From contig CAVZUI010000002.1 in the NCBI GenBank assembly GCA_963778415.1, positions 585,663-649,662 of the forward strand: DNA of 64,000 nt. The letters run 5' to 3'. This DNA comes from an uncultured Acidimicrobiales bacterium. GTDB lineage: Bacteria > Actinomycetota > Acidimicrobiia > Acidimicrobiales > VFJN01. The notes below the pieces were generated by a model that was given only the letters and a program-made list of their open reading frames with translations, ran no database searches and was not told where the DNA came from. A program made the position numbers and the translations under genes. Below, in pieces: positions 7,832-58,877 of this stretch (the stretch's first letter is position 1; each line of letters begins with the position of its first letter).

Positions 7832-9166
7832 TCAGTTCCAGGTGAAGGTGTCGGCGGTGAGCCGTTCGGCGAGCGGCGGTCTGTAGGCCGACGCTGGTGG
7901 GGGTGGGCCGTCCCTCGGTGGCCGGGTACCCGGAGGTGGGAGGCCGGGCGGGGCGATGGGTCGGCCGAAGCGGTCGAGGAAGCGGAGGGTGCCGGCTTCA
8001 GGGTTGCCCTCGATGGAGAACTCGTCGTGGTGGAGCGCCCGGTGGTGGGACGGGCACAGCAACACGAGGTTGTGGGGCTCGGTCAGGCCTCCGTGTTCCC
8101 AGAAGACCAGGTGGTGGGCGTGGAGCCAGAGTCGTTGGGTGCACAGGGGATGGGTGCAGCCCTGGTCGCGGCGGGCGAGGTAGCGGCGCATCGCCCGGTT
8201 GGGGGTGCGGTGGCTGGGGTGGATGCCGATCAGCTGGCCGAGCCGGTAGGCCATGACCTGGACCTGGGCGTCGCAGCACAGGTAGCGGGCGACCGAATCG
8301 GGCACCACCGGGCCGTTCTCCAACTGGGCGGGGCCGACGCTGCCGTCGGGGTCGACATCGATGTGCACCACCACGGTGTTGCGTTCGCCGCGCTCGCCGG
8401 TGCGTCGAAAGGTGGGATCGAGGGCGTCGGCGGCTTCCGATGCCATGCGCACCAGCCCGTCGGCCCACGACACCGAGCGGGCGCCGTCGGCCGCGGCCTC
8501 GGGGCCCGCGCCGCTGATGTTGCCGTCGTCGGCGGGGTCGGGGTCGGGGAGGTCGTTGCGGTCGCGGAACTCGGCGTCGCGGGCGGTGGCGAGGCCCAGC
8601 CGCACGAGGGCGCCTTCGTCGGCCGGGAGGCAGAACCGGCCCCGCAGCCAGCCGTCGCGGCCGTCGTGCATGTGCAGCACTCGCTCGGGCCCGGGAGTCG
8701 GGGGCCCGTCGGAGCCGTCGGGTTGTTCGGGCAGCGAGCGCAGCAGGCGGTCGAGCTGGGCGATCAACAACGTCGGTGCCAGAGCGGCGACCTCGCCGTC
8801 ACGCGACGGCGGCACGCGGCGGGCGATGCGGACCATGGCGTCCTCGCCCAGGCGCCCGGCCTCGAACAGCGCCCAGCAGGCCGGCAGCTCGCGGGCGCGG
8901 CGGGCGATGGTCACCAGACCTTCGGCCCGGGGCCGGGACACACCGGCCTTCCAGCACAGCCAGTGCTCGGGGGAGCGGATGCCGACGCCTTCCCACCCGC
9001 CGCTGTCCAGCAGCACCTGCACCGCCGCCACCAGCCGGGCCACCGCCACGTTGACCGTGCCCATGACGTCGACGGCCTCTGACTCCGCGAAGTGCCACGC
9101 CGCTTCCTGTGGTGACGGGCCTGCGCCGGCGGGCGGCGGGGCGGTTGGTTCGGCCAGGACGGGCAT
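7832..9166 (-). CDS. DUF222 / HNH endonuclease (REP13E12-like family)
   Basis: C-terminal HNH motif: CTHPLCTQRLWLHAHHLVFWEHGG..HNLVLLCPSHHRALH. The N-terminal DUF222-like region has GIRSPEHWLCWKAGVS. The ATG at 9166 (MPVLAEP) sits 7 nt after a -10-like hexamer. The part of the 602-aa ORF upstream of this does not look coding. Confidence 0.8.
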   Translation of the reverse strand: MPVLAEPTAPPPAGAGPSPQEAAWHFAESEAVDVMGTVNVAVARLVAAVQVLLDSGGWEGVGIRSPEHWLCWKAGVSRPRAEGLVTIARRARELPACWALFEAGRLGEDAMVRIARRVPPSRDGEVAALAPTLLIAQLDRLLRSLPEQPDGSDGPPTPGPERVLHMHDGRDGWLRGRFCLPADEGALVRLGLATARDAEFRDRNDLPDPDPADDGNISGAGPEAAADGARSVSWADGLVRMASEAADALDPTFRRTGERGERNTVVVHIDVDPDGSVGPAQLENGPVVPDSVARYLCCDAQVQVMAYRLGQLIGIHPSHRTPNRAMRRYLARRDQGCTHPLCTQRLWLHAHHLVFWEHGGLTEPHNLVLLCPSHHRALHHDEFSIEGNPEAGTLRFLDRFGRPIAPPGLPPPGTRPPRDGPPPPASAYRPPLAERLTADTFTWN

Positions 9167-9173
9167 GGCTCCA

Positions 9174-9199
9174 ACCGTACTCAGGGGGTGTGACACTTT
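9174..9199 (-). promoter_or_regulatory. RecA-NDp-like promoter (AAAGTGTCACACCCC-N-TACGGT) of the HNH gene
   Basis: The minus strand reads AAAGTGTCACACCCCCTGAGTACGGTtggagccATG. The core TGTCACAC, 8 nt, then TACGGT; the ATG is 7 nt further on. The same 15-mer occurs at recA and the LysM gene. Confidence 0.6.
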
Positions 9200-11384: not shown

Positions 11385-12283
11385 ATGGGCAACGCTCGCT
11401 TCGGCAAGGTCCTGACCGCCATGGTCACCCCGTTCCACGACGACGGGAGCCTCGACCTCGAGGGCGCCGCCGCCCTCGCCCGCTGGCTGGTGGCCCAGGG
11501 CAACGACGGCCTGGTCATCGCCGGCACCACCGGCGAGGCGCCGACGCTGTCCGACGACGAGACGGTCGATCTCTGGCGGGCCGTCCGCGCCGCCGTCGAC
11601 GTGCCCCTCCTGGCCGGCACCGGCAGCAACGACACCCGCCACACGATCGGGCTCTCGCAGCGGGCGGCCGAGACGGGGGTGGACGGGCTGCTCGCTCGTG
11701 TCGCCGTACTACAACCGGCCGCCGCAGGCCGGCATCGAGGCGCACTTCCGCGCCGTGGCCGAGGCGACCGACCTGCCCATCGTCATGTACGACGTCCCCA
11801 TCCGCACCGGCCGGGAGATGGCGGTCGACACGATCGTGCGGCTGGCCAACGAGGTGCCGGCGATCGCCGGGCTCAAGGACGCCCGCGGCCGATCCCGGCG
11901 AGGCGGCCGCCATCGTGGACGGGGCGCCCGACGACTTCGACGTCTACTCGGGCGACGACGGTCTCACCCTGCCGCTGCTGGCCGTCGGCGCGGTCGGGGT
12001 GATCGGCGTCGCCACCCACTGGACCGCGGGGCTGCACGCGGAGATGATGGCCGCGCACGACAAGAACGACGTCGACGGGGCACGCGAGATCAACGCCCGG
12101 CTCGTGCCGTCGTTCGAGGTCGAGGTGGGCGACACCTGGGTCCAGACCAGCGCGGCCAAGGCGGCGATGGCGGCTCTCGGCCAGCCGGCGGGCCCGGTGC
12201 GCCTGCCGCTGCCCCCGCTCGACGACGCGGTCCGCGCCGCGGTCGCCCACGTGCTCGACGGTCTGGGGCTCGCCCGTGGCTGA
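11385..12283 (+). pseudogene. dapA: 4-hydroxy-tetrahydrodipicolinate synthase, two frameshifts (~11693, ~11885-11892)
   Basis: AGGAG RBS then [27 protein letters not shown]. The protein continues in a second frame ([30 protein letters not shown]) and a third ([26 protein letters not shown]...). Confidence 0.9.
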
Positions 12284-13944
12284 GCCGGTCAAGGTCACGT
12301 TCCTGGGTGGGCTGGGCGAGATCGGGCGCAACTGCGCCTGCATCGAGGTCGACGGGCGCATCCTCCTGCTCGACGTCGGGCTCATGTTCCCCGACATCGA
12401 CATGCTCGGCGTCGACCTGGTGCTGCCCGACTTCACCTACCTGCGGGACAACGCCGACCGGGTCGACGGGGCGATCATCACGCACGGCCACGAGGACCAC
12501 ATGGGGGGCCTCAGCTACCTGCTGCGCGAGCTGTCGTTCCCCATCTACGGGTCCGAGCTCACCCTCGGCCTCGCCCGCAACCGCATCGAGGAGGCGGGCC
12601 TGCTCGATCGCACCGAGCTGATCCCGGTGCGCGACGGCGAGCGCCGCCGCATCGGCCCGTGCCAGGTCGAGTTCATCCCCGTGACGCACTCGGTGCCCCA
12701 GGGGTTCGCCACCGCCTTCCACACGCCGCAGGGCACGATCCTGCACTCGGGCGACTTCAAGCTCGACCTCACGCCCGTCGACGGCCGCCTCACCGACCTG
12801 GCGCGGATCGGGGCGCTGTCGTCCGGCGACGGCATCCGCCTGCTGCTCAGCGACTCGACCAACGCGGACGAGCCCGGCCACGCCCGCAGCGAGACCTCGG
12901 TGGGCAAGGTCCTCTACAACCTCTTCCACGAGCACGAGGGCCGGCGCATCGTCATCGCCTGCTTCGCCAGCCACGTGCACCGCGTGCAGCAGATCGCCGA
13001 CGCGGCGGTGGCGTTCGGGCGCAAGGTGGCCACCCTCGGGCTGTCGATGAAGAAGAACGTCCGGCTGGCGCGCGAGATGGGGCTGCTGCGCATCCCCGAC
13101 CACGCCCTGGTCGACATCGACGACGTCGCGCGACCTGCCGCCGGGCCAGGTGTGCGTGATCTCCACGGGCAGCCAGGGCGAGCCGATGTCGGCGCTGTCG
13201 CTGATGGCGCAGCGCAACAACCGCTGGCTCGAGATCGACGCCGACGACACGGTGATCCTGTCGTCGCACCCGATCCCGGGCAACGAGATGAACGTGTCGA
13301 AGGTGATCGACGGCCTCGTGCGCCTCGGCGCCGAGGTCGTCCACTCGGGCATCTCCGACGTCCACGCCTCGGGGCACGCCAAGCAGGAGGAGCTGAAGAC
13401 CCTGCTGTCGATCGTGCGGCCCGACCACTTCGTCCCGGTCCACGGCGAGTACCGGCACATGGTGGCCCACGCCAAGCTGGCGAGGGCCGTGGGCGCGGTG
13501 GCCGAGTCCGAGATCCACGTGTGCACCGACGGCGACCAGCTCGTGCTCGACGACGACGGGCTGCGCGTCGAGCGCCAGGCGGTGCCGTCGGGCTACCTGT
13601 TCGTCGACGGCATCATCGGCGACGTCGGCCAGGGAGTGCTGCGTGACCGGCGCGTGCTGGCCGAGGAGGGCGTCGTCGTGGTCGTGGTGACCGTCGACGT
13701 GAAGACCGGCGCCATCCTCGTCGGCCCCGAGGTCATCACGCGGGGCTGGGTCTACGCCCCCGAGGCCGAGCCCCTGCTGTCCGAGTGCGCCGACGCCGTG
13801 CGCATGGCGGTCAAGGAGTCGGTCGCCACCGGCGCCGGTGACATCGAGGCGCTCCAGAAGGTGGTCCGGCGGGCGGCCGGCAAGTTCGTCAACGAGTCGA
13901 CGAAGCGACGCCCGATGATCGTGCCCGTCGTCACCGAGGCCTGA
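12276..13944 (+). pseudogene. rnj: Ribonuclease J, one frameshift (~13129-13131)
   Basis: Metallo-beta-lactamase motif [11 protein letters not shown], plus SDSTNADEPG. The second frame continues VCVISTGSQGEPMSAL..HASGHAKQEEL..VPVHGEYRH. Confidence 0.9.
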
Positions 13945-16045: not shown

Positions 16046-18597
<2,552 letters not shown>

Positions 18598-27207: not shown

Positions 27208-28446
27208 GTGCGGTGTGAGGTCGTGGCCGTCGGCACCGAGCTGCTGCTCGGCCAGATCGTCGACACCAACTCGGCCTGGCTGGGCGAGCACCTCGCCCTC
27301 GCCGGCATCGACCGCACGCACGGGCAGGTGGTGGGGGACAACCTCGACCGCATCGTGGCGGCGCTCGAGCTGGCGCTGAGCCGGGCCGACGCGGTGATCG
27401 TGTGCGGGGGTCTCGGGCCGACCCAGGACGACATCACCCGCGACGCCCTCGCGGCCGTCATGGGCGTCGACCTGGTCACCGACGATGCCGCCGCCGACCG
27501 CATCCTCGAGCGCTTCGCGGCGCGGGGCGGCGCATGCCCGCCAACAACCTGCGGCAGGCGCTCGTGCCCGCCGGCGCCACCGCCATCGCCGACCCGCAGC
27601 CGGGCACCGCCCCCGGGCTGATCTGCCCGGTGGGCGACAAGGTCGTCTACGCGGTGCCGGGCGTCCCCTACGAGATGCAGGAGATCGTGCGGGGCGCGAT
27701 CCTGCCCGACCTGGCACGGCGAGCCGGGACGGTGGCCGTCATCCGCTCACGCACGCTGCGGACCTGGGGCGACAGCGAGTCCGGCCTCGCCGAGAAGCTG
27801 GCCGACCACATGGCCGCACTCGACGAGGGCGGGCCGACCGCCCCCACGTTGGCGTTCCTCGCCAGCGGCATCGAGGGTCTCAAGGTGCGGATCACCGTCA
27901 AGGCCGACGACGAGGCCACGGCCGCTGGCTCGTCTCGACGCCGAGGAAACGGTCGTCCGCGGCATCGTCGGCGACATCGTGTTCGGGGTCGACGGCGAGA
28001 CGATGGAGCACGCCGTCGGGCAGGCGCTGCAGGCGCGGGGGCTCACGCTGGCGGTGGCCGAGTCGCTCACGGGCGGGCTCGTGGCGGCCCGGCTGGTCGA
28101 CGTGCCCGGAGCCAGCGCCTGGTTCCGCGGCGGCGTCGTCTCGTACGCGTCCGACGTGAAGTTCTCCGTCCTCGGCGTGCCCGAGGGACCGGTCGTCACG
28201 CCCGAAACGGCGGTGGCGATGGCCGCGGGCGTGCGCGACCTGCTCGGCGCCGACGTCGGCCTGGGCGTCACCGGCGTGGCCGGGCCCGAGAGCGCCGAGG
28301 GTCACCCGCCCGGCACGGTCTACCTCGGCGCCGTGGTCGGCGACGCCGACCCGGTGACGGCGCAGGTCATGCTGCCCGGCGACCGCGTCCGGGTGCGGCA
28401 GTTCGCCTGCATCTCGCTGCTCGACATGCTGCGCCGCCTGCTCTGA
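27208..28446 (+). pseudogene. cinA: Competence/damage-inducible protein CinA, two frameshifts (~27520-27527, ~27918-27925)
   Basis: The MoCF-binding N-terminus (VVAVGTELLLGQIVDTNSAWL..GGLGPTQDDITR), middle part (PNNLRQALVP..GTAPGL) and C-terminal deamidase domain (LAVAESLTGGLVAARL..GVTGVAGP) lie in frames 1/0/1. Confidence 0.85.
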
Positions 28447-29439: not shown

Positions 29440-30576
29440 TCAGGGCAGGATGGTGGTGGAGCCGGGCTCGGGCAGCTCGACCCACGTGCGCCCGGGCGTG
29501 AGGGCGATCGGCGCGCCGGCCGCGTCGAGGTACCGGGTCGGTGAGTTGGCCGCGGTCTTGACCCAGCGGGCCGTGTAGGCGACGCCGCCGGTGAGCACCA
29601 GCGCCTGACCCTGGCCGACGAGCTGGGCCTCGCGGATCGGCACGCCGAACTGGTCGTTGGTGCCGCTGCTGGCGTAGGGGGTGGACTGCACGATCACGTT
29701 CTCGGGAGCGATCTGGTTGCCCTCGGAGTCGACGTGGGGAGTGCCACTCTGCGAGCGGGCCCACCCGGTGCCGTTCCACGCGAACTCGACGGGGGCCGAC
29801 CCGGCCCCGACGGCGAACACGATCCGCACGCCCTTGATCGAGGTGCCGCCGGGCGCCGGGGCCGCGCCGGCGGCGCGGTAGGTGAACAGCGGGGTGGCCG
29901 GCCGCGTCGCCCGGGGATAGCTGCCGGCCCACACCTCCATCGTGCTCTCGAGCATGAGGTTGTGCGGGGCCCTGCGGTCGCCCGCCCGGGCGTAGAACTG
30001 CGGCGCGACGGGTGCGCCGACGTCGACGATCCCCGCGTCCCTGATCCGCGCCTCGAAGATGGCGTTGGCGCCCGACCAGGCGAAGAGCGGCCGGTTGAGC
30101 GGCTGGAACAGGCCGATGTCGGACGTCCGCGCCGAGCGCACGGGACCGATCGGCATGGCGTCGTGGGAGTGGTAGATGGCCATGAAGCGCGTCACGGCCC
30201 CCTCGACCCGCTCCTCGTACACGACGTCGGCGTTGTTGATGCCCGCCTGGGGGCGCGATGCCGGCTCGGCGTTGTCGATCTTCACGATCAGCGTCGGCCG
30301 GGCGAGGGCGGCGGGGTCGGTGACCCGCAGGCCCGTGAGCGGGTAGACGGGCGGCGGCGGGGGAGGGGGCGGAGCCGTGGTGGTGGTCGTGGAGGACGTG
30401 GTCGTCGTCGTCGTGGTCGGGGCACTCGCCTCGGACGACGTCAGGCTCACCGCGGTCACCGCGCACACGGCCAGGACGACGACGGCGGCGGCACCCGCGA
30501 CGACCTTGCCGCGAGGCGTCGACAGGAGGGCCGTGAGGCGGGCCCGCGGCCCGGTCGGGGTCGGTTCACCGGTCAC
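29440..30576 (-). CDS. DUF3048 domain protein (membrane-anchored, Thr/Pro linker)
   Basis: N-terminal TM, poly-T/poly-P linker, then PLTGL..RPTLIVKIDN..ADVVYEERVEGAVTRFMAIYH, typical of DUF3048 (YerB-like). Confidence 0.75.
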   Translation of the reverse strand: MTGEPTPTGPRARLTALLSTPRGKVVAGAAAVVVLAVCAVTAVSLTSSEASAPTTTTTTTSSTTTTTAPPPPPPPPVYPLTGLRVTDPAALARPTLIVKIDNAEPASRPQAGINNADVVYEERVEGAVTRFMAIYHSHDAMPIGPVRSARTSDIGLFQPLNRPLFAWSGANAIFEARIRDAGIVDVGAPVAPQFYARAGDRRAPHNLMLESTMEVWAGSYPRATRPATPLFTYRAAGAAPAPGGTSIKGVRIVFAVGAGSAPVEFAWNGTGWARSQSGTPHVDSEGNQIAPENVIVQSTPYASSGTNDQFGVPIREAQLVGQGQALVLTGGVAYTARWVKTAANSPTRYLDAAGAPIALTPGRTWVELPEPGSTTILP

Positions 30577-30655: not shown

Positions 30656-31174
30656 GTGCGCCTGTTCGTCGCCGTCGTCCCGCACGAGCCGGTCCTGGCG
30701 GCGGTGGCGGCGCTCGATCGACCCGAGGCGCCGGGCGTGCGCTGGACGACCCGCGACCAGTGGCACGTCACGCTGCGGTTCCTCGGAGAGGTCGAGGACC
30801 CGGACCCCGTCGCCACCGCGCTCGACGACGCCGCCCTGGCGCCGGCCACCGCGACGCTCGGCCCCCGCGTGACCGCCCTCGGGCGAGGCGTGCTCGTGGT
30901 GCCGGTCGCGGGTCTCGACGCCCTGGCCGGGGCGGTGGTGGCCGCCACCGCGGGCATCGGGCGACCGGCGGGGGATCGGCCGTTCCGTGGGCACCTCACC
31001 CTCGCCCGGGCGCGCCGGGGGGCCTCGGTGCGGGCGCTGGCCGGGGCGGCGGTGGCGGGCACGTTCCCGGTGGACGAGGTGCGGCTGGTGCGGAGCCGCC
31101 TCGGGCCCGGCGGCTCCCGGTACGACGACGTGCACGTCCGGCGGCTCGGCGAAGGAACTCGCCCAGGTCCTTGA
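30656..31174 (+). CDS. thpR: RNA 2',3'-cyclic phosphodiesterase (2H family, LigT/ThpR)
   Basis: Two H-x-T-x motifs, HVTLRF and HLTLAR. GTG start giving VRLFVAV. Confidence 0.8.
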
Positions 31175-31175
31175 A

Positions 31176-31189
31176 CGAACAGGCGTTCG
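31176..31189. promoter_or_regulatory. LexA box (cGAAC-AGGC-GTTCg) upstream of recA
   Basis: Perfect GAAC-N4-GTTC palindrome, the Gram-positive/actinobacterial SOS-box core, about 210 nt before the recA start. Confidence 0.75.
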
Positions 31190-31269
31190 AAACTACAGTC
31201 GTGTCGTTCCTCGAAAGCCGTCGGTCGGTGTTCTCGGATCCTCCGGTGTTCCCCGGTTCCGGCGGCCGC

Positions 31270-31295
31270 AAAGTGTCACACCCCGTCCTTAGGGT
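31270..31295 (+). promoter_or_regulatory. RecA-NDp-like promoter of recA
   Basis: AAAGTGTCACACCCCGTCCTTAGGGT: TGTCACAC (31274-31281), 8 nt, then TAGGGT (31290-31295). The same 15-mer is found at 9185-9199 (-) and 51306-51320 (+). Confidence 0.6.
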
Positions 31296-31399: not shown

Positions 31400-32455
<1,056 letters not shown>

Positions 32456-32464
32456 TCCGCTCGC

Positions 32465-32499
32465 GGGTGTGGGGCGGCGCGGCGGCCGCCTTCACACCC
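32465..32499 (+). terminator. Hairpin after recA
   Basis: GGGTGTG..GGCGGC..GCCGCC..CACACCC nested inverted repeat 10 nt after the stop. No T tract. Confidence 0.35.
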
Positions 32500-32574
32500 G
32501 TGCGGTGACCCCGGGCGGGGCTCTCGGGACCACTAAGGTTCCCCGACGTACGACGAGCGTGGCTCTGGGGGACG

Positions 32575-35500
32575 ATGACCGTCGTGAGCACTGCGACACG
32601 CGGCACCGCTGCGGCGGCCGCACTCCGGTCCTACGGGCCGGCCATCGCCATCGTGGCGGTGCAGCAGATCTTCTTCCCGGCGCCTGCGGGCATCGTCGTG
32701 CGCGGCCTCGTGGTGGGCGGGCTCACGGCACTGATCGCCCTGGGCATGGCGCTCGTCTACCGGGCCAACCACATCATCAACTTCGCCCAGGCCGACCTCG
32801 GGCTGGCGCCCGACGATCCTGGCGTTCCTGCTCATCGACCAGTCGGGCCTGCCGTACGCGGTGGCCGTGGTCATCGGCCTGGCCGCCGCGGTCCTCCTCG
32901 GGGCGACGACCGAGCGGGTCGTGATCCGGCGCTTCTCGCACTCGCCCCGCCTGCTCGTCACGGTGGCGACCATCGGCCTCAGCCAGGTGCTGGTGGCCGT
33001 CGCCATGCTGCTGCCGCGGCTCTGGGACCTCGACCTCGTGGCCGGGCGCATCGCGCCGCCGTTCGACGCCACCCGCGAGATCGGCACGATCACCTTCGAC
33101 GCCAACGACCTGCTCGGGCTCGTCGTCACCCCGATCGTCCTCGTGGCCGTCACCGCCTTCCTCCGGCGCAGCGCGGCCGGCACGGCCATCCGTGCCAGCG
33201 CCGACAGCGCCGATCGGGCCGCCCTGCTCGGCGTGCCGGTGGCGCGGCTGCAGACGCTCGTGTGGTCCGTCGCCGGGGCGCTCGCCTTCACGGCCGTGTT
33301 CCTGCGCAGCGGCATCCTCGACGTGCCGACGACGACGGCGCTGGGCTTCGGCGTGCTGCTGCGGGCCCTCGTCGCCCTCGTGCTCGGGCGTCTCACCGAC
33401 CTGCCCGGCGTCGCCTCGGCGGCCGTCGCCCTGGGGGTGCTCGAGCTCGGCATCGGATGGGACCACGACATCTCGCTCATCGACCCCGTGCTCGGCCTGG
33501 TCGTCATCGCCGCGCTGGTGTGGCGGCGCCGTGAGGTCGGTCGGGTCGATCTCGCCGACGCCGCGGCCTGGCGGGCGGCCGACGAGGTCCGACCGGTCCC
33601 GGCCGCGCTGGCCGCCCTGGGCGGTGCCCGCGCCGCTCGTTGGGGCCTCATCGCCATCGCCGGTGTGGTGGCCCTGGCCCTGCCCGCCGTCCTCAGCGCG
33701 GACCAAGAGTTCAAGGCCGCGGCCGTCCTCGATCTACGCCGTGCTGGGCCTGTCCCTGGTGCTGCTGGCCGGGTGGGGCGGCATCGTGTCGCTCGGGCAG
33801 GTGGCCTTCTTCGCCATCGGCGCCGCCGTGACCGGCTTCGTGGTCTCCGAGTGGGGGGCCGACCTGTTCGGCGGGCTGATCATCGCCATGGTCGTGGGGT
33901 CGGTGGTGGCCGCGCTCGTGGGGATACCGGCCCTCCGGCTCCGCGGCCTCTACCTGGCGGTGACCACGTTCGCGTTCGCGCTGGCCACCACGTCCTACCT
34001 GCTCGACGACGACCGGTTCGGCTGGGTGCCCGACGCCCGCATCGAGCGCGCCCCGTTGCTGGGCGGGTTCGAGGTCTCGTCCGAGGCCGCGACCTACTAC
34101 CTCGCCCTCGGGGTGTTCGTGTTGGTCGGCCTGGGCCTGCGCGGCGTGCGGACCAGCCGCTTCGGCCGCGCCCTCGTGGCGGTGCGCGACAACGAGCCGG
34201 CCGCCGAGTCGTACGCCGTCGACCCGATCCGCCTCCGCCTGGTGGCCTTCAGCCTGTCGGGCGCGATCGCCGCCCTGGCCGGTGGGCTGTTCGTCCATCA
34301 CGAGCGTGCCTTCGACCCGTCGTCGTACTCGGCCGTCGAGAACCTCGTCGTGCTCACGATGGTCGTGATCGGGGGGATGACCTCCGTCGCCGGCGCGCTG
34401 CTCGGCGCCCTGGCGCTGCTGGGCTCCCGCTGGTTCCTCGACCCCGAGTGGCAGTTCCTCGCCTCGGGGCTCGGCGTGCTTCTGATCCTGCTGCTGGCGC
34501 CCGGCGGCCTCGCCGGCCTGGCCTACCGGGCCCGTGACGCGTGGCTGCGGCTCGTCGCGGTCCGGGGTGGTCTGCGGGTCCCGGGCTTCGGCGCACCGGC
34601 TCCGGGTCCGGTGACCGAGGCGCCGGAAGACGAGGCCGACGTCGGCGCGCCCGTCGCGGTACAGGCCGGCGCCGGCGCTGGCGCCGTGCTCCTGCGGGTC
34701 CAGGGCGTCGAGGCGGGCTACGGCGGCGTGCCGGTCCTCACCGGCGTCGACCTGATCGTGCACGAGGGCGAGGCCGTGGCCCTGCTGGGCACGAACGGGG
34801 CCGGCAAGTCGACGCTGCTCCGCGCCATCTCGGGGCTGGTCCCCGTCACCGAGGGCTCGATCGCCTGCGACGGCGACGACATCACCGGGCTGGCGCCCCA
34901 CCTGGTGGCGGCCCGCGGCGTCGTGCAGATGCCCGGCGGCGCGGGCGTGTTCCCGTCGCTGACGGTGGCGGAGAACCTGCGGGTGGCCGGGTGGCTCCAC
35001 CGTCACGACGCCGTCGCCGACCCGCTGACCACCGACCTCGGCGAGCTGTTCCCGATCCTCGACGCCCGTGCCGACGAGCAGGCGGGCAACCTGTCGGGCG
35101 GCCAGCAGCAGATGCTGGCCCTGGCGATGGCCGTCCTCATGCGCGCCTCGACTGCTCATGATCGACGAGCTGTCGCTCGGCCTGGCCCCGGCGGTCGTGG
35201 GCGACCTGCTGCGCTTCGTCGACCGCCTGCGCGACGAGGGCACGACGCTGCTGATCGTCGAGCAGTCCGTGAACGTCGCGCTCGAGATCGCCGACCGGGC
35301 GGTGTTCCTCGAGCGGGGCCGGGTGCGCTTCTCGGGGCCTGCGTCCGACCTCCTCGGCCGCACCGACCTGCTGCGCTCGGTGTTCCTCGGCTCGGCCTCG
35401 GCGACGCCGATGGCCGCCTCCGCGCCGGCGGACGGTCCGTCCGCCCCGGCCGTCGGGACGCAGCCCGCGGCGGGCGGTGCCCTGCTGCGGGCGGTCGAGC

Positions 35501-36288
35501 TGAGCGCCTCGTTCGGCGGCGTCCGGGCGGTCGACGGCGTCTCGTTCGACGTGGCGCCGGGCGAGGTGGTCGGGATCATCGGGCCGAACGGCGCGGGCAA
35601 GACCACCGTGTTCAACCTGCTCGGCGGCGCGCAGCCCGTCGAGGCGGGTCGCGTCCTCCTGGCGGGTGACGACGTCACCGGGCTGCCGGCCGCGGCCCGG
35701 GCCCGTCGCGGCCTGGGCCGCTCGTTCCAGGACGCCCGCTTGTTCCCCGCCCTCACGGTCGACGAGACGATCGCACTGGCGCTCGAGCGCTGGGTCGAGG
35801 TCGGCGATCCCTTGTCGGCCGCCTTCCACCTGCCGAACGCGGTCGGCAGCGAGCTGGCCGTCGACGAGCGGGTCGACGAGCTGGTCGAGCTGCTCGGCCT
35901 GGGGGACGTCCGTTCGCTGTTCGTGCGCGAGCTGTCCACGGGCACGCGGCGGGTCGTCGACCTCGCGTGCCTGCTCGCGTTCCGCCCCCGCGTGGTCCTG
36001 CTCGACGAGCCGGCCGCGGGCATCGCCCAGCGCGAGGTCGAGCAGCTCGCGCCGCTGGTGCGCCGCATCCGCGACGAGACCGGTGCCAGCCTGGTCGTCG
36101 TCGAGCACGACCTGCCGTTCGTGCGGGCGATCGCCGATCGCGTGGTGGCGATGGACCAGGGCAAGGTGCTGGCCGACGGCGCGCCCGACTCGGTGCTGTC
36201 CGCACCCGAGGTGGTGGCCGCCTACATCGGTGACGACGAGCGCGCCGCGAGCCGGTCGGGTCCGATCGGCGCAGGGCAGGCACCGTGA
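32575..36288 (+). pseudogene. Fused branched-chain-amino-acid-type ABC transporter (LivH-LivM permeases + LivF-like + LivG-like ATPases), three frameshifts (~32811, ~33731, ~35148)
   Basis: No stop codon separates the four modules. LivH-like TM domain to ~33530. LivM-like IYAVLGLSLVLLAGWGGIVSLGQVAFF..NEPAAESY. First ATPase: GTNGAGKSTLL, LSGGQQQMLA, LLMIDELSLGL. Second ATPase: GPNGAGKTTVFN, LSTGTRRVVDLA, VVLLDEPAAG. Confidence 0.75.
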
Positions 36289-43171: not shown

Positions 43172-44147
43172 ATGGCCTCGGCCCCCTCCGCCCCCCGGCC
43201 CGTCGCCCTCGTCGGCACGACGGCGTCGGGGAAGTCGGCGCTCGCCCTCGCCCTGGCCCGGCGCGACCCCGCGGTGGAGCTCGTGTCGGTCGACTCGATG
43301 CAGGTCTACCGGGGCATGGACATCGGCACCGCCAAGCCGACCCCCGCCGAGCAGGCCGAGGTCCGGCACCACCTGCTCGACATCGCCGACCCGTGGGACG
43401 AGTTCACGGTGGCCGCGTTCGCCGCCGAGGCCCGGCGGGCCGTCGCCGACATCGCGTCGCGGGGCCGGCGGGCGCTCCTCGTCGGCGGCACCGGGCTCTA
43501 CCTGCAGGCCGTCGTCGACGACCTGCGACGTCCCGGGTCGGTTCCCCGACGTGCGCGCCGCGCTCGACGCCGAGCCCGACACCGTCGCCCTGCACCGGCG
43601 GCTCGCCGCCCTCGATCCCACCGCCGCCGGGCGCATGGAGCCGACGAACCGGCGCCGGGTCGTCCGGGCGCTGGAGGTGACGCTGGGCAGCGGTCGTCCG
43701 TTCTCCTCCTTCGGGCCCGGCCTCGGGGCGTACCCGCCGAGCCCGTTCCTCCTGGTCGGCGTGCGGCTGCCGCACGACGTCGTGGCCGACCGCATCGCCG
43801 CCCGCTACGAGCAGCAGATGGCGGCCGGCTTCCTGGACGAGGTCGAGCGGCTGCTGGCCGATCCCCGGGGCCTGTCGCGCACGGCCGGGCAGGCGCTCGG
43901 CTACCGCGAGCTGGTGGCCCACGTCACCGACGGGGTGCCCCTCGACGAGGCCCTCGACCTGGCGGTCCGGCGGACCCGGCGCTTCGCCCGGCGCCAGGCG
44001 TCGTGGTTCCGCCGCGATCCCCGGATCCGCTGGCTGGACGCGGCCGCCGACCCGTCGACGCTGCTCGGCGCCCTCGAGGGCGAGGTGGCGGGCGCGGGCG
44101 ACGGAGGGGAAACGGGCACGCACGCCGCTCGCCGTCGGGCAGACTGA
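43172..44147 (+). pseudogene. miaA: tRNA dimethylallyltransferase, one frameshift (~43525)
   Basis: P-loop [16 protein letters not shown] and [18 protein letters not shown]. The second frame carries RRVVRALEV and [23 protein letters not shown]. Confidence 0.9.
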
Positions 44148-44155
44148 ACCCCGAC

Positions 44156-45002
44156 ATGCGTCTCACCAAGCACCACGGCCTGGGCAACGACTTCCTCGTC
44201 CTGCTCGACCCCGACGCCTCCCACCCGCTCGATGCCGAGGTGGCGCGCGCCCTGTGCGACCGCCACACGGGCATCGGCGCCGACGGCCTCATCCGGGCCA
44301 CGCCGGCCGAGCCGGGCGAGGGCGCGACGTCACCGATGGAGCTGCTCAACGCCGACGGCTCCCGGGCCGAGATGAGCGGCAACGGCATCCGGTGCCTGGC
44401 CCAGGCGCGTCCTCCTCGCCGATCCCGGGCTCGGCCCCACCGATCCCCATCGTCACCGACGCCGGGCTGCGCACGGTCACGGTCCACGACCAGGTCGACG
44501 CCGTGACCCACAGCCTGTCGCGTCGGCGATGGGCACCGGCCGAGGTCGAGGGCGAGGCGCCCGAATGGGACGGCGGCGCCGTCGGCCGCGCCGCTGCTCG
44601 TCGACATGGGCAACCCGCACCTCGTGCTCGACCTGTCGGCCGCCGGCCCGGGCGCGCTCGACGCCGTCGACCTGGTCGAGCTCGGCGAGACCGTCAACGG
44701 CAAGGTCCCGGGCGGCGCCAACGTGCGAGCTGCTCACCGCGGCCGACCAGCCCGGCGACCGTCGCCATGCCGCGCCTACGAGCGCGGGGTCGGGCCGACG
44801 CTGGCCTGCGGCACCGGGGCGTGCGCGGCCGCGGCCGCCGCCACGAGTCTGGGGCCTGGCCGGCGACCGGGTGCCGGTCGCGCAGCCGGGCGGCACCGCC
44901 GAGGTCACGCTCGGCGAGCCGGCCGCCGGCGACGAGGTCGTTCTCCGGTGGCCGGCCACCTACGTGGCCGAGATCGGCCTCGGAGCGTCGCCGTGGCGCT
45001 GA
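44156..45002 (+). pseudogene. dapF: Diaminopimelate epimerase, at least 5 frameshifts
   Basis: [12 protein letters not shown] and [13 protein letters not shown] (frame 2). [12 protein letters not shown] (frame 1). MGNPHLVLDL (frame 2). ELLTAADQPGD (frame 0). YERGVGPTLACGTGACAAA (frame 2). GDRVPVAQPGGTAEVTL..stop (frame 0). Confidence 0.85.
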
Positions 45003-46293
45003 TCGAACGGACCTTCCGGGAGAGGATCGTCCTGGTCGGCGTCACCATCCCGCCCGAGACGCGTCGAGGACACCGAGCAGCCGGCTCGACGAGCTGGCCC
45101 TGCTGGTCGACACCGCCGGCGCCGACGAGGTCGGCCGGGTCGTCCAGCGCCGCCAGTCGCCCGATCCGCCCACCTACGTCGGCAAGGGCAAGGCCGAGGA
45201 GCTGCGCGAGGTGGCGCTCGCCATCGACTGCGACACGGTCGTGTTCGACGACGAGCTCACGCCCGCCCAGCAGTGCAACCTCGAGAAGATGCTCGGTCGC
45301 ACCGCCATCGACCGCACCGCGGTGATCCTCGACATCTTCGCCCAGAACGCCCACAGCCAGGAGGGCAAGGCCCAGGTCGAGCTGGCCCAGCTCCGCTACC
45401 GGCTGCCGCGGCTGCGGCGCCGGGCACGGCGCGCTGTCGCAGCAGGCCGGCGGCATGTCGGCCGCGGGCGGCGCCCGCATCGGCACCCGTGGCCCGGGCG
45501 AGACGCAGCTCGAGGTCGACCGCCGGCGCATCGTGCGCCGCATCCACAAGCTCGAGGCCGACCTGCGCGAGATCGACCGCCACCGCGCGACCCAGCGCAA
45601 GGCGCAGCGCCGGGGCCAGCTCGCCAACGGTCGCCATCGTCGGCTACACGAACGCCGGCAAGTCGACGCTGCTCAACCGGCTCACCGACGCCGGCGTGCT
45701 GGTCGAGGACCGCCTCTTCGCCACCCTCGACGCCACCACCCGCCGGCTCGAGCTGCCCGGCGGCGAGGCCGTGCTGCTCACCGACACCGTCGGGTTCATC
45801 CGCAAGCTGCCCCACCAGCTCGTCGAGGCGTTCCGGTCGACGCTCGACGGTCGCGGTCGACGCCGACCTCCTCGTGCACGTGGTCGACGCCGTCGGCCCC
45901 CGACCCCGAGTGGCAAGATGCGACGCCGTCCGCGACGTGCTCGCGCGAGATCGGCGCCGACGACGTGCCCGAGCTGGTGGCGTTCAACAAGGCCGACCTG
46001 GCACCCGACGAGGCCGAGCGGCTGCGCGACGACCCACGAGGGCTCGGTGGCGTTCAGCGCCGCCACGGCGAGGGCATCGACGAGCTGCTCGTGGCCACGA
46101 TCGGCGACCGGCTCCGCGCGCTGACGACGGTCGTCGAGCTGGTCGATCCCCTTCGACCGCGGCGACGTGCTGGCCGCCGTCCACCGGGAGGGCGAGGTGC
46201 TCGAGCGAGGAGGCCGGCGAGGGCGGCATGCGCCTGCGCGGCCGCTTCGACGACGCCTCGGTCGGCCGCTTCCGCGAGTACGTGGTCGGCTGA
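44993..46293 (+). pseudogene. hflX: GTPase HflX, about 11 frameshifts
   Basis: Conserved blocks are scattered over all three frames: ERIVLVGV; [50 protein letters not shown]; [15 protein letters not shown]; [33 protein letters not shown]; LLVHVVDA; LVAFNKADL; GEGIDELL. Confidence 0.85.
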
Positions 46294-46294
46294 C

Positions 46295-47402
46295 GTGGGC
46301 GCTCCCCGCGGCTTCGAGCCGCCGCCGTACCCGTACGACCGGCTCGACGTGCTGCACAAGGAGGCCGAGAAGGTCCCCGGCGGGGTCGTCGACCTGTCGA
46401 TCGGCACGCCCTGCGACCCGCCGCCGGCGGTCGTCGTCGAGGCGCTCGGATCGTCGGGCGCCGAGCGCGGCTACCCGCCGTCGGTCGGCACCGCCGCGTT
46501 CCGCGAGGCGGCCGCGGGCTGGCTCGACCGCCGCTTCGGCGTCGCCGTCGACCCGCAGCACCTGGCCGCCTGCATGGGCACCAAGGAGTTCGTGGCCGGG
46601 GTCCCGCACTGGCTGCGCCTCCGCTCGCCCGACCGCGACACCGTGCTGTACCCGCGATCAGCTACCCGACCTACGCCATGGGGGCGACCCTCGCCGGGTG
46701 CCGGGCGGTGCCCTACGCCGACGCTCGCCGACGTCGACCCGGCCGACGCGGCCCGTGCGCTGTGCCTGTGGGTGAACTCACCGGCCAACCCGACCGGCGA
46801 GCTCGACGACCTCGGCGCCGCCGCGGCGTGGGGTCGGGCGCACGACGTCCCGGTCCTGTCGGACGAGTGCTACATCGAGTTCACCTGGGACGGGCCCGGC
46901 GCGCACGATCCTCGGCACGAGGGCCTCGACGGCGTGCTGGCCGTCCACTCGCTGTCGAAGCGCTCGAACCTCGCCGGCGCCCGGGCCGGCTTCTACGCCG
47001 GCGACCCCGATCTCGTCCACTACCTGTCCGAGGTGCGCAAGCACGCCGGGTTCATGGTGCCCGGGCCCGTGCAGGCCGCGGCGGTGGCCGCCTTCGGCGA
47101 CGACGCCCACGTCGACGAGCAGCGGGCCCGCTACCAGGGCCGCCTCGACGCTGATGGTCGACGCGCCTCGCGACCGCCGGGGTCGACTGCCCGTCGCCCG
47201 ACGGGGCGTTCTACGTGTGGGCGCCGGCACCGGACGGCGACGCCTGGGCGCTGGCCCACCGGCTCGCCGCCGAGGGCGGGGCCATCGTGGCGCCCGGGCG
47301 AGCTTCTACGGCGAGGCGGGCGCCGGTCACGTGCGCATCGCCGTGGTGCAGCCCGACGAGAAGATCGCCCTCGTCGCGCGGCGACTCGCCGCGGCGCGGT
47401 GA
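46295..47402 (+). pseudogene. dapC: Succinyldiaminopimelate aminotransferase, at least 5 frameshifts
   Basis: PYPYDRLD..DLSIGTPCDPPP..GYPPSVGT, then SYPTYAMGATLAG in another frame. NSPANPTG..SDECYIEF..HSLSKRSNLAGARAGFYAGD (PLP lysine block). FYVWAPAPDGDAW and FYGEAGAGHVRIAVVQP lie in further frames. Confidence 0.8.
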
Positions 47403-47415
47403 CGAGCTGACCCAG

Positions 47416-50486: not shown

Positions 50487-50523
50487 AGCGGCGCCGGCCC
50501 CCACGAGACCTGGCCGCGCCGCT
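50487..50523. terminator. Bidirectional hairpin between convergent dapE and lexA
   Basis: AGCGGCGCCGGCC-12 nt-GGCCGCGCCGCT, a 12-13 bp stem with one bulge. Confidence 0.45.
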
Positions 50524-51155
50524 CAGAGGCGACGCATCACGGTGACCACCCGGCCGAACACCTGGACCTCGGCGGGCGAATAGACCATCGGACCGAGGCG
50601 GGGGTTCGCCGGCTGCAGGACGACCCGGTCGCCGTCGGTGGTGAAGGTCTTGACCGTGGCTTCGTCGCCCGGGATGCCTGCGACCACGATGTCGCCCTCG
50701 TCGGCCGTCGACTGCGAGCGGCAGACGACGTAGTCGCCGTCGAGGATGCCGGCCTCGATCATCGAGTCGCCGCGCACCCTGAGCATGAAGAGGTCTCCCT
50801 CGCCGGTGAAGTCGGCCGGGAGCGGCAGCACCTCTTCGACGTTCTCCTGGGCGAGGACGTCGGTGCCGGCGGCCACGTCGCCCACGAGGGGGACGTGGCG
50901 GACCGGGCGCCGGTCGATGACCGCGTCGGACGTCGGGTCCCACCGGACCTCGAGGGCGCGCGGCTTGGTGGGGTCGCGGCGGAGGTAGCCGCGCTTCTGC
51001 AGCGCGGCCAGGTGGGCGTGGACGGTGGAGGGCGAGGTGAGGCCGACGGCCTCGCCGATCTCGCGCACCGAGGGCGGGTACCCCCGCTCGCGCATGTGCT
51101 GCTCGATGATCTCGAGGACCTCACGTTGGCGGGCGGTGAGTGTCTGCTGGGCCAT
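50523..51155 (-). CDS. lexA: SOS repressor LexA
   Basis: MAQQTLTARQREVLEIIEQHMRERGYPPSVREIGEAVGL.. wHTH domain, then the S24 peptidase with GDSMIEAGI and GDIVVA. The ATG at 51155 is preferred over the longer ORF. Confidence 0.93.
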   Translation of the reverse strand: MAQQTLTARQREVLEIIEQHMRERGYPPSVREIGEAVGLTSPSTVHAHLAALQKRGYLRRDPTKPRALEVRWDPTSDAVIDRRPVRHVPLVGDVAAGTDVLAQENVEEVLPLPADFTGEGDLFMLRVRGDSMIEAGILDGDYVVCRSQSTADEGDIVVAGIPGDEATVKTFTTDGDRVVLQPANPRLGPMVYSPAEVQVFGRVVTVMRRL

Positions 51156-51180
51156 GGTGCGCTCCTTCACGCAGAACGGC

Positions 51181-51192
51181 GAACGCACGTTC
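51181..51192. promoter_or_regulatory. LexA box GAACGCACGTTC (lexA proximal)
   Basis: GAAC-N4-GTTC, 26 nt upstream of the lexA ATG. Confidence 0.75.
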
Positions 51193-51257
51193 TGGTGGGA
51201 ACGTACCACCGGCCCCTCGCGAAGACAAACACCCGTTCGGGGGAAACGGTTGACGGC

Positions 51258-51269
51258 GAACGCAGGTTC
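51258..51269. promoter_or_regulatory. LexA box GAACGCAGGTTC
   Basis: GAAC-N4-GTTC in the lexA/LysM divergent region. Confidence 0.7.
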
Positions 51270-51286
51270 GTGGTTTGGTGGCACTC

Positions 51287-51298
51287 GAACGGGCGTTC
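51287..51298. promoter_or_regulatory. LexA box GAACGGGCGTTC
   Basis: GAAC-N4-GTTC, immediately upstream of the RecA-NDp-like element of the LysM gene. Confidence 0.7.
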
Positions 51299-51305
51299 GT
51301 CCCGC

Positions 51306-51331
51306 AAAGTGTCACACCCCCTCAGGAGACT
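51306..51331 (+). promoter_or_regulatory. RecA-NDp-like promoter of the LysM gene
   Basis: AAAGTGTCACACCCCCTCAGGAGACT: TGTCACAC (51310-51317), 8 nt, then GAGACT. The ATG is 6 nt further on, which implies a leaderless mRNA. Confidence 0.55.
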
Positions 51332-51337
51332 GGGCCC

Positions 51338-51754
51338 ATGGTCGCCATCCAGATCCCCCGCCCGGCAGTCGAATGGGCTCCGGTCCCCGAGACCTCGCCC
51401 GACGTCGCACCGGGGGCGGTCCCGTCCCGCCGTCCCGCCCCCCGTCTGCCCGACCGGGCCACCCGCATCCGTCGGCGGCGGCTCGTCGCCCTCCTGGCCG
51501 TCGTGGTGCTCGCGTTCGCCCTCGTCGCCGCCGTCCGGGCGGTGTCGGGCCTGGCGGCGGTCGACAGCTCGCCCCGGCCCGAGCCGATCTCGGGCACCGA
51601 GTACGTCGTCCAGCCGGGCGACACGCTGTGGACGATCGCGGGGCGCATCGCCCCCGACGACGATCCGCGGGCGGTCGTCGATGCGCTCCGCGCCGCCAAC
51701 GGTGGCCGCGCCGAGCTCGAGGTGGGCACGCGGCTCGACCTCGCGGTCGGCTGA
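51338..51754 (+). CDS. LysM domain membrane protein (Rv2719c-like, divergent from lexA)
   Basis: A TM anchor (LVALLAVVVLAFALVAAV) followed by the LysM motif YVVQPGDTLWTIAGRI. Its position opposite lexA matches mycobacterial synteny. Confidence 0.8.
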   Translation: MVAIQIPRPAVEWAPVPETSPDVAPGAVPSRRPAPRLPDRATRIRRRRLVALLAVVVLAFALVAAVRAVSGLAAVDSSPRPEPISGTEYVVQPGDTLWTIAGRIAPDDDPRAVVDALRAANGGRAELEVGTRLDLAVG

Positions 51755-52393
51755 TCAGCGCTCGGGCGCCAGCTTCTCGAACTCGTACGACAGCGCCTCG
51801 CGCGCGGTGCGGAGCTGGGTCTCGACCGACTCGAGGGAGGCGAGGAACGTGCGGGACCAGGCGAGGCGACGTTCGAGGTCCTCCAGCTCGGGCGAGTGGT
51901 TCTCGCCCTCGCGGGCTCGTAGCTCGACGACCGCCTGCTCCGCCGCCGCGTCGGCCTGCGAGGTCGCATCGTCCAACACTCGCTGCGCGTGGTCGTGCGC
52001 CTCTGCCGCCAGGCGGCGGCAGTACTCCTGCGTCTGGGCGACGTAGGCGTCGGCCTCCTGTTGCGCCCGCGACAGGATGTTCACGGCGTCGACGGTGGCC
52101 GACGAGGTGTCGGGCGACCGACCGTTCACGTCCTCGGTGCGCGACTCGCTCTGCTCCCGCTGCCATTGCACCAGCGTGTTCTTGTAGTGCGTGACCTTGG
52201 CCCGCAGCGAGGTCTCGGCCGCGTCGCGGGTGGCGATCTCGTCGGCGACGCGCTGGAGGAACGACGCCACCTCGTCGTCGGCCAGGCCGCGACGCCCGAT
52301 CGGCGTGCGCGAGAACTGCATGGACCGCACTCGGTCGGGGGTGAGGCGCTGGACCGTCCGCCTGGCGTACTGCTCGTCGGCGGTATCGGTCAT
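51755..52393 (-). CDS. DivIVA domain protein
   Basis: DivIVA N-terminal signature LTPDRVRSMQFSRTPIGRRGLADDEVASFLQRVADEI followed by coiled-coil-like sequence. ATGA overlap with the upstream globin/FNR gene. Confidence 0.75.
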   Translation of the reverse strand: MTDTADEQYARRTVQRLTPDRVRSMQFSRTPIGRRGLADDEVASFLQRVADEIATRDAAETSLRAKVTHYKNTLVQWQREQSESRTEDVNGRSPDTSSATVDAVNILSRAQQEADAYVAQTQEYCRRLAAEAHDHAQRVLDDATSQADAAAEQAVVELRAREGENHSPELEDLERRLAWSRTFLASLESVETQLRTAREALSYEFEKLAPER

Positions 52394-55828: not shown

Positions 55829-55841
55829 CCACATCTTGTGG
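55829..55841. promoter_or_regulatory. NrdR box candidate 1 (CCACATCTTGTGG)
   Basis: Palindrome with an ACA..TGT core, resembling the NrdR-box consensus. It starts 5 nt after the -10. Confidence 0.55.
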
Positions 55842-55854
55842 CTCCCCGGTCAGT

Positions 55855-55871
55855 TACCACAAGCCCTGGTA
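55855..55871. promoter_or_regulatory. NrdR box candidate 2 (TACCACAAGCCCTGGTA)
   Basis: Second palindrome about 28 nt centre-to-centre from box 1. NrdR boxes usually occur in pairs about three helical turns apart. Confidence 0.45.
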
Positions 55872-55929
55872 GCTGGCTCAGGTCGCAACTCTCCCCACCG
55901 CGATCTCCGAACGACCTGGAGGAATCCCC

Positions 55930-58867: not shown

Positions 58868-58877
58868 TCCACCCAGT

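Follow-up and report, generated by a model that had tools for sequence, protein, structure and literature searches.

A probable Acidimicrobiia form of the PafBC-type DNA-damage promoter upstream of recA, a lexA-divergent LysM gene and a DUF222-HNH gene

The PafBC promoters of mycobacteria are transcribed by the SigA holoenzyme together with PafBC, which sits between the DNA and region 4 of SigA and replaces recognition of a -35 element (PMC8635444). PafBC is activated by single-stranded DNA (ssDNA) (PMC11804915). The mycobacterial RecA-independent promoter (RecA-NDp) is given as tTGTCRgtg-N8-TAnnnT in the part of PMC5656591 that cites Gamulin 2004, and chromatin immunoprecipitation sequencing of PafBC yielded the consensus tGTCgg(N10)tA(N3)T, in which lower case marks conservation of 50% or less (PMC8635444). 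Residues R46 and R50 of PafB read both guanines of the GTC, which is strictly conserved in actinobacterial recA promoters (PMC8635444). In M. tuberculosis, recA has a promoter P1 and a LexA-controlled promoter P2 (PMC3381160; PMC11804915), the divergent lexA/Rv2719c pair carries four SOS boxes and a RecA_NDp, and the 13E12 family also carries RecA_NDp (PMC3381160). The published alignments cover 14 species for the promoters and 23 for the proteins, all of class Actinomycetes and including Blastococcus and an Arthrobacter species. In our literature search, PafBC was not connected with Acidimicrobiia in any paper, nor was the motif described here reported; the motif strings matched only unrelated primers. 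Here, we report that a 15-nucleotide (nt) sequence, AAAGTGTCACACCCC, lies upstream of recA, of a LysM gene divergent from lexA and of a DUF222-HNH gene in a 64,000-nt stretch of DNA from an uncultured Acidimicrobiales bacterium (contig CAVZUI010000002.1, positions 585,663 to 649,662; hereafter the window). Judging from sequence comparison, we put at roughly 70% the probability that this 15-mer is the upstream element of a -35-less, DNA-damage-inducible promoter, the Acidimicrobiia form of the PafBC (RecA-NDp) promoter.

The 15-mer occurs exactly three times in the 64-kb window, at 31270-31284 and 51306-51320 on the plus strand and at 9185-9199 on the minus strand, which agrees with an earlier note made from the sequence of the window. 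Each of the three lies between genes and is oriented toward a gene start (recA, the LysM gene and the DUF222-HNH gene, respectively). When up to three mismatches were allowed, four matches were observed, against a mean of 0.59 per window in 100 dinucleotide-preserving shuffles, none of which reached four. The fourth match, at 29736-29750, has three mismatches, lacks the GTC and lies within a gene, and is therefore a chance occurrence. Alignment of the three exact copies shows that identity is confined to approximately 19 nt, CCG(C/T)AAAGTGTCACACCCC, and that the flanks are unrelated, indicating that the copies are not part of a dispersed mobile repeat. The earlier note had named a dispersed, mostly intragenic repeat as the finding that would speak against its proposal, and this candidate was rejected on the unrelated flanks. 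At all three copies 5 nt separate the 15-mer from an nAnnnT hexamer, such that TGTCACAC is separated by 8 nt from TAGGGT (31290-31295), GAGACT (51326-51331) or TACGGT (9179-9174, minus strand), the -10-like hexamers to which attention had already been drawn. The GAAC-N4-GTTC inverted repeat is absent from the 15-mer, and the SOS boxes are separate sites nearby. A pattern scan of the window detected no site of the mycobacterial form TGTCRGTG-N8-TAnnnT, and an Rfam search of the whole window returned no family match.

The geometry that the earlier note had likened to RecA-NDp holds against the published consensus. In the window, TGTCAC lies 10 nt from TAGGGT, GAGACT or TACGGT, and the same spacing is found in an independently chosen set of recA promoters described below; TGTCAC-N10-(T/G)AnnnT thus compares with tGTCgg(N10)tA(N3)T, with the GTC retained. 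The features of the recA promoter region are as follows.

31171..31199, plus strand: putative LexA-repressed recA promoter TTGAAC-N17-TACAGT, inferred, with an SOS box in the spacer
31176-31189, plus strand: SOS box CGAACAGGCGTTCG upstream of recA, found with the CGAAC-N4-GTTCG pattern, within the TTGAAC/TACAGT spacer
31270..31284, plus strand: exact match to the 15-mer AAAGTGTCACACCCC, the putative "-26 element" of the recA damage promoter
31290..31295, plus strand: TAGGGT, putative -10 hexamer of the recA damage promoter, from the sequence; its T, A and T fit TAnnnT
31400..32455, plus strand: recA (Pfam RecA, 2.8e-141)

The GTG start codon of recA at 31400 lies 104 nt after the TAGGGT hexamer. 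The start site of the damage promoter is predicted at approximately 31302, leaving a leader of about 97 nt, and a start some 7 nt after the hexamer would put TGTC at about -28 to -25. The TTGAAC-N17-TACAGT pair with a LexA box in its spacer is kept upstream of recA in three other loci (L234, L235 and L242). It lies 60-70 nt upstream of the motif promoter, is likely a second, LexA-repressed recA promoter and is analogous to P2 of mycobacterial recA. A strict sigma-70 consensus scan around recA called no promoter, the pair at 31171-31199 included. Ahel et al. reportedly described in 2002 a "new type of promoter" for recA of Streptomyces and Mycobacterium, TTGTCAGTGGC-N6-TAGggT. It has TTGTCA in the same place, at the same total distance from a TAGGGT-type -10 and likewise upstream of recA, but reads GTGGC where CACCC is found here. 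In the recA promoter of L106, a tandem copy with one mismatch, AAAGTGTCACAGCCC, lies approximately 20 nt upstream of the exact 15-mer.

The other two copies precede genes whose start codons follow the hexamer directly.

50523..51284, minus strand: lexA (Pfam LexA_DNA_bind and Peptidase_S24); start uncertain, 51284, or 51188 according to coding potential
51180-51193, 51226-51239, 51257-51270 and 51286-51299, plus strand: four SOS-type boxes in the lexA-LysM intergenic region, by pattern search
51306..51320, plus strand: exact match to the 15-mer, putative -26 element of the LysM-gene promoter
51326..51331, plus strand: GAGACT, -10-like hexamer of the LysM gene, from the sequence
51338..51754, plus strand: gene for a LysM-domain membrane protein, divergent from lexA (Pfam LysM)
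7832..9166, minus strand: DUF222-HNH (13E12-family-like) gene (Pfam DUF222, 3.9e-16)
9174..9179, minus strand: TACGGT, putative -10 hexamer of the DUF222-HNH gene, from the sequence
9185..9199, minus strand: exact match to the 15-mer, putative -26 element of the DUF222-HNH promoter

The LysM protein begins with the ATG at 51338, 6 nt after GAGACT, and in its translation an arginine-rich N-terminus is followed by a single transmembrane helix and, at the C-terminus, by the LysM domain, making it like Rv2719c/ChiZ by position and architecture. Two of the four SOS-type boxes that separate it from lexA are exact and two have one mismatch, and the last ends 7 nt before the 15-mer. The pairing of targets pointed out in the earlier note, recA and a lexA-divergent Rv2719c-like gene, is therefore one that carries RecA_NDp in M. 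tuberculosis (PMC3381160). The ATG of the DUF222-HNH gene at 9166 lies 7 nt after TACGGT, and the C-terminus of the protein carries the HNH motif CTHPLC...HHLVFWEHGG...LLCPSHHRALHH. We take the 13E12 family to be equivalent to the DUF222-HNH proteins, so that all three targets in the window have a hallmark RecA_NDp counterpart in M. tuberculosis. Given the position of their start codons, the mRNAs of the LysM and DUF222-HNH genes would be leaderless, as had been proposed for these two copies, a proposal strongly supported by the recurrence of the same geometry in 65 of 95 sites in other genomes (see below).

As an unbiased view of the element, we used recA loci that encode RecA proteins 86-92% identical to that of the window and that were picked regardless of the motif, which gave seven independent promoters. 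All seven contain TGTC(A/g)CACC(C/g)(C/g)-N5-TAnnnT; an SOS box lies 60-70 nt before it, and the core is TGTCACACCCC in four and TGTCACACCCG, TGTCACACCGG and TGTCGCACCCC in the others. TGTC is thus present in 3 of 3 window copies and 7 of 7 of these promoters. The 5' flanks vary (gaaag, gaagg, gaggg, cgcac, cagac and cttct), indicating that AAAG is preferred and not required. Of the extension of the conserved block beyond the core that had been claimed earlier, the 3' part stands as C(C/g)(C/g), whereas the 5' AAAG is a preference only. The window copies contain the symmetric sequence GTGTCACAC (GTGT-C-ACAC), which had been put forward as the possible site of a different dimeric regulator and would suit a homodimeric activator. 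However, the base 5' of TGTC in the seven promoters is G, G, G, C, G, C and T, and one core reads TGTCGCAC, indicating that two-fold symmetry is not the conserved unit. A symmetric operator was therefore rejected: the symmetry is broken in three of the seven promoters while the asymmetric TGTCRCACC is kept, and the palindrome is incidental.

What distinguishes the element is the sequence after TGTCR. In the window copies and the seven recA promoters this is CAC(C) and not the mycobacterial GTG, with R kept (A, once G). TGTCGGTG-N8-TAnnnT occurs three times and the CAC type not at all in 760 kb of Actinomycetes pafB loci; the corresponding counts in the Acidimicrobiia recA loci are zero and seven. 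The difference from mycobacteria recorded in the earlier note is borne out, as is its suggestion of a lineage-specific variant, and the change from GTG to CAC is class-wide in Acidimicrobiia and not peculiar to this genome. The g-t-g after R in RecA-NDp is thus replaced by CAC(C); the positions after GTC are conserved at 50% or less in M. smegmatis, and R-g-t-g is therefore a weak criterion of membership.

In order to examine the distribution of the element, we scanned 185,579 species genomes with the 15-mer followed by N6-A-N3-T and obtained at least 114 stretches, at least 67 of them in genomes labelled as Acidimicrobiia. This set was selected on the exact 15-mer, and only the seven recA promoters therefore give an unbiased view of variability. 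Counts of sites, genomes and gene families from here on refer to the matches listed. By record title, 65 belong to Acidimicrobiia, Acidimicrobiales, Ilumatobacter, Iamiaceae or Microthrixaceae, and two more to Candidatus Spongiisociales, also Acidimicrobiia. Approximately 20 are from unclassified Actinomycetota or sponge-associated "bacterium" metagenome-assembled genomes (MAGs), with the same gene families; approximately 15 are from Actinomycetes (Actinoplanes, Paractinoplanes, Dactylosporangium, Arthrobacter, Bifidobacterium, Blastococcus and some MAGs); and approximately 12 are from low-GC non-actinobacteria, a number consistent with chance. Several sites can occur in one genome; MFD05454.bin.1.266 and MFD04850.bin.1.220 have five apiece. 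Synteny with the window is seen in MFD04850.bin.1.220, where the recA and LysM sites are 20.1 kb apart, compared with 20.0 kb here. A single-cell Acidimicrobiia genome of 33% G+C (L047:4591-4616) has the exact 15-mer, TAATAT and an ATG 6 nt further on, and the gene behind it encodes a LysM-like membrane protein; retention of the exact G+C-rich 15-mer in such a genome is a strong sign of constraint by protein binding.

The exact 15-mer followed by N5-TAYAAT is also found in phage-like IMG/VR contigs of approximately 0.54 GC (L002:2219-2244, L026:5921-5946, L027:4571-4596, L036 and L038) and in L028:1693-1718. In the phage-like contigs it forms the 3' arm of a hairpin, GGGGTGTGGCAC-gacaaa-GTGTCACACCCC, immediately after a stop codon, and behind it come a roughly 30-nt leader containing AAGGAG and a small open reading frame (ORF). 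Phages may use the damage promoter of their hosts. Three contig ends of Actinomycetes bacterium TL1-2.bin40 (GC 0.51; L054:51-76, L064 and L081) carry an identical 15-mer-TATAAT with identical flanks, and this element is an assembly-breaking repeat.

The spacing between hexamer and start codon is informative with regard to promoter architecture. Of 95 unique high-GC sites, 65 have a start codon, ATG or GTG, exactly 6-7 nt beyond the hexamer, and each other offset accounts for 0-6 sites. This is the distance expected between a -10 and a transcription start, and most such genes would therefore be leaderless. A profile of the 95 sites is flat in composition over the 20 nt that precede the 15-mer, with no -35-like signal, and no TG of an extended -10 is seen. 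Position 1 of the hexamer is T in 62% and never A, the A at position 2, the T at position 6 and the N5 spacing being fixed by the search pattern. A housekeeping-type -10 with neither a recognizable -35 nor an extended -10 indicates a promoter that needs an activator.

Two explanations that dispense with such an activator can be weighed at this point. The first is that the element is the -35 equivalent of a damage-induced alternative sigma factor of the extracytoplasmic function (ECF) type, as could be suggested by a bipartite conserved motif of fixed spacing upstream of start sites. However, the hexamer fits the housekeeping TAnnnT and not ECF -10 motifs, and TGTCAC and AAAGTG lie 10 nt and 14 nt from the hexamer, as opposed to the 16-19 nt that separate -35 and -10 in the sigma-70 family; in addition, the homologous mycobacterial promoters use the SigA holoenzyme with PafBC (PMC8635444). 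We consider this explanation very improbable, and an alternative-sigma -35 was rejected because the spacing to the hexamer is too short. The second, which we regard as extremely unlikely, is that the 15-mer has no role as a promoter and represents a dispersed repeat, a repressor operator or a recurrence by chance. The sequence is short and the strict sigma-70 consensus scan calls no promoter there, but the chance expectation is close to zero, the flanks are unrelated, all three window copies are intergenic and face gene starts, and most Acidimicrobiia sites lie 6-7 nt before a start codon. Furthermore, the genes behind the element form a functionally consistent set across about 80 genomes, and since a -35 and an extended -10 are both lacking, there would be no promoter on which a pure operator could act.

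We grouped the sites by clustering the first downstream ORF of each and searched representatives against Pfam, which gave the following families.

RecA, 12 sites
LysM protein, 12 sites
DUF222(-HNH), 10 sites
Second HNH family, 6 sites
RmuC, 6 sites
Protein of 62-66 amino acids (aa) of unknown function, 6 sites
Cys protein of 54 aa, 4 sites
RadA, 3 sites
ComF-like, 2 sites
UvrB, SbcD-like phosphoesterase, 1051-aa PD-(D/E)XK (AdnA-like) protein, UvrD-HRDC helicase, DnaB and rpsF, single cases

The genes downstream of the motif form a DNA-repair regulon across Acidimicrobiia. The earlier note had proposed a check for enrichment before repair genes, and such genes do follow the motif in the genome scan, with RecA, RadA, UvrB, RmuC, AdnA-like and UvrD-like targets. 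The set, which includes recA, the Rv2719c-like gene and the 13E12 family, overlaps the mycobacterial PafBC regulon (PMC8223512). All 12 LysM promoters are orthologous Acidimicrobiia promoters with the 15-mer and GAGAnT-type hexamers. Some of the leaderless products have no Pfam match: the 62-66 aa protein directly behind the element (MASAQLQLIHSDDSWKLD...; L044, L065, L069, L127, L137 and L138), the 54-aa Cys-containing protein of sponge-associated Acidimicrobiia (L045, L057, L107 and L135), and further proteins of approximately 120 aa and 150 aa (L097 and L144; L113 and L121).

Overlap with the LexA regulon was also examined at the listed sites. SOS-like boxes accompany the motif at 12 of 15 recA/radA sites and, within 120 nt upstream, at 12 of 12 LysM sites, compared with a background of about 0.01 per 160 nt, and none was detected at the motif sites of other gene families, DUF222-HNH included. 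This restriction to recA/radA and LysM indicates two overlapping regulons, one controlled by LexA and one by the motif, and parallels recA P1/P2 and lexA/Rv2719c of M. tuberculosis (PMC3381160; PMC11804915). The LexA SOS box of Actinobacteria (GAAC-N4-GTTC) therefore co-occurs with the element at recA and lexA/LysM and belongs to the same stress response, but it is a repressor operator of unrelated sequence and is absent from the other motif-bearing promoters.

Taken together, the element resembles the RecA-NDp/PafBC promoters in having TGTC(R) at the same distance from TAnnnT, no -35 and partial overlap with the LexA regulon. The targets are also alike: recA with a separate LexA promoter, a lexA-divergent LysM gene with multiple SOS boxes, 13E12/DUF222-HNH, radA, uvr and adnA-like genes. 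It differs in having CACC(C/g)(C/g) after TGTCR where mycobacteria have GTG(g), in a conserved length of 11 nt (15 in many sites) as opposed to essentially GTC in M. smegmatis, and in that about two thirds of its sites drive leaderless genes. The proposal of a RecA-NDp/PafBC-type, LexA-independent damage promoter is thus supported by geometry, targets, regulon and leaderless starts, and we regard the element as a lineage-specific form of a promoter class already known and not as a new kind of system.

Several observations weigh against assigning the element to PafBC. The four bases that follow TGTCA are CACC, as opposed to GTGg in the mycobacterial consensus. Compared with M. smegmatis, in which high conservation is limited to GTC, the element is also longer and much more rigid, making possible a regulator with different or additional DNA contacts. 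No pafB, pafC or any other WYL gene was found in Pfam scans of the 64-kb window. Likewise, a regular expression and two hidden Markov models, of the PafB N-terminus and of the full-length protein, detected no PafBC among all ORFs of the window and in approximately 0.9 Mb of fetched Acidimicrobiia DNA from about 80 genomes.

Wider searches used the M. smegmatis PafB N-terminus from PDB 7P5X, in which R46 and R50 lie in AFSRMFERDK and which was located with an M. tuberculosis sequence as the probe. A word-indexed protein search with this N-terminus returned short, close fragments only, none from Acidimicrobiia. A metagenome scan with a PafB alignment yielded 80 closest loci of 57-85% identity, taken as Actinomycetes because they are close to mycobacterial PafB. 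In a profile search of a representative library, the best 150 of 3165 matches all have the RMFERDK-type helix; Marmoricola, Naumannella, Glycomyces, Propionibacteriaceae and Arachnia are named among them and no Acidimicrobiia are, but distant classes would rank lower than these 150. No PafB was found in a viral scan. Those matches of the wider searches that carry an organism name are all Actinomycetes. As for what is published, Acidimicrobiales carry the pupylation locus (PMC3511204), pafBC is in tight linkage with that locus (PMC8223512), almost all actinobacterial species are said to have PafBC (PMC8635444), and a 316-aa class A helix-turn-helix (HTH)-WYL-WCX protein is listed for one Acidimicrobiia MAG.

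These observations bear on the possibility that the same activator-dependent, -35-less architecture is read by a protein that is not a PafBC ortholog. Candidates would be a homodimeric WYL activator like DriD of Caulobacter, an ssDNA-sensing HTH-WYL protein that controls LexA-independent damage genes including a cell-division inhibitor (PMC9186387, PMC13004042), or an unrelated HTH protein reading 11-15 bp. Such a reader would account for the different core 3' of TGTCA, for near-invariance over 11 nt even in the 33% GC genome L047 when M. smegmatis reads only GTC base-specifically (PMC8635444), for the absence of PafBC from the DNA searched and for the symmetry of the window copies. Against it, TGTCR, the -10 spacing and the regulon are common to PafBC promoters, three of the seven independent recA promoters have a broken palindrome but an intact asymmetric core, and the exact 15-mer with the same geometry precedes genes in Actinoplanes, Dactylosporangium, Bifidobacterium, Blastococcus and Arthrobacter. 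In addition, the PafBC search covered only about 0.9 Mb from some 80 genomes. DriD itself acts as a homodimer, unlike the asymmetric site here, belongs to another phylum and is likened by type of regulator and not by the sequence of its site. We therefore think a non-PafBC reader rather unlikely; the reader of the element is most likely an orthologous PafBC with altered or extended readout.

A related and equally tentative idea is that the damage activator of Acidimicrobiia evolved a more extensive readout of 11-15 bp (AAAG-TGTCACACCCC), either as a diverged PafBC or as a different regulator that now controls, in place of the original one, an ancestral PafBC-type regulon. If true, a second HTH, a wing or sigma contacts would read the additional bases in a diverged PafBC, and near-invariance across genomes of 33% to 75% GC, together with apparent phage use, would mark a distinct class-wide regulatory code.

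If the element is the Acidimicrobiia form of the PafBC promoter, the core TGTCACACC would lie at about -28 to -20, combined with a housekeeping-type -10 TAnnnT and no -35. Upon DNA damage, a PafBC-type (HTH-WYL) activator loaded with ssDNA would bind the element and connect it with region 4 of the housekeeping sigma factor, a mode called "sigma adaptation". Transcription would then start approximately 7 nt after the hexamer; initiation would coincide with the ATG of the LysM and DUF222-HNH genes, and recA would be preceded by a leader of about 97 nt. The recA and lexA-divergent LysM genes would be under dual control of LexA SOS boxes and the activator, and the DUF222-HNH gene under control of the activator alone. 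Across Acidimicrobiia, TGTC(A/g)CACC(C/g)(C/g), often after AAAG, would replace the TGTCRGTG of Mycobacterium and other Actinomycetes.

The window itself has a G+C content of 74%. A codon-based gene call with Pfam scans gave the gene order dapA - rnj - fpg - ftsK ... cinA - recA - miaB - miaA - hflX - dapD - lexA / LysM - nrdR - nrdJ, which is the usual actinobacterial stretch. The nearest proteins to its RecA are up to 97% identical and are named [Acidimicrobiales bacterium]. No recX was recognized after recA, and the genes of a branched-chain amino-acid ATP-binding cassette (ABC) transporter 3' of recA show a strong negative AT skew (-0.24) across 32000-36000; in the relative L246, the branched-chain amino-acid permease and ATPase form one 1288-aa product. 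Several genes are split or fused (16250-18597, 55838-59018, 27208-28446, 11915-13944, 43551-47410 and 51755-53521): ftsK is two ORFs and the class II ribonucleotide reductase four, cinA, RNase J, dapA, miaA and hflX are fragments, and a globin-FAD (flavin adenine dinucleotide) reductase is fused to a DivIVA-like ORF. These frameshifts look like the indel errors of a long-read MAG, which probably explain why an exact look-up of the RecA sequence of the window retrieved no record.

A LexA-independent, activator-driven damage response has so far been studied in mycobacteria and inferred for Actinomycetes. The Acidimicrobiia form of the PafBC promoter would extend this response beyond class Actinomycetes to the deep-branching, mostly uncultured Acidimicrobiia. 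The rule TGTCRCACC-N7-TAnnnT would predict the damage regulon from metagenome-assembled genomes, including conserved leaderless genes of unknown function, and the class-wide switch from GTG to CACC beside an invariant GTC would be a natural experiment on the promoter positions that are important for "sigma adaptation".

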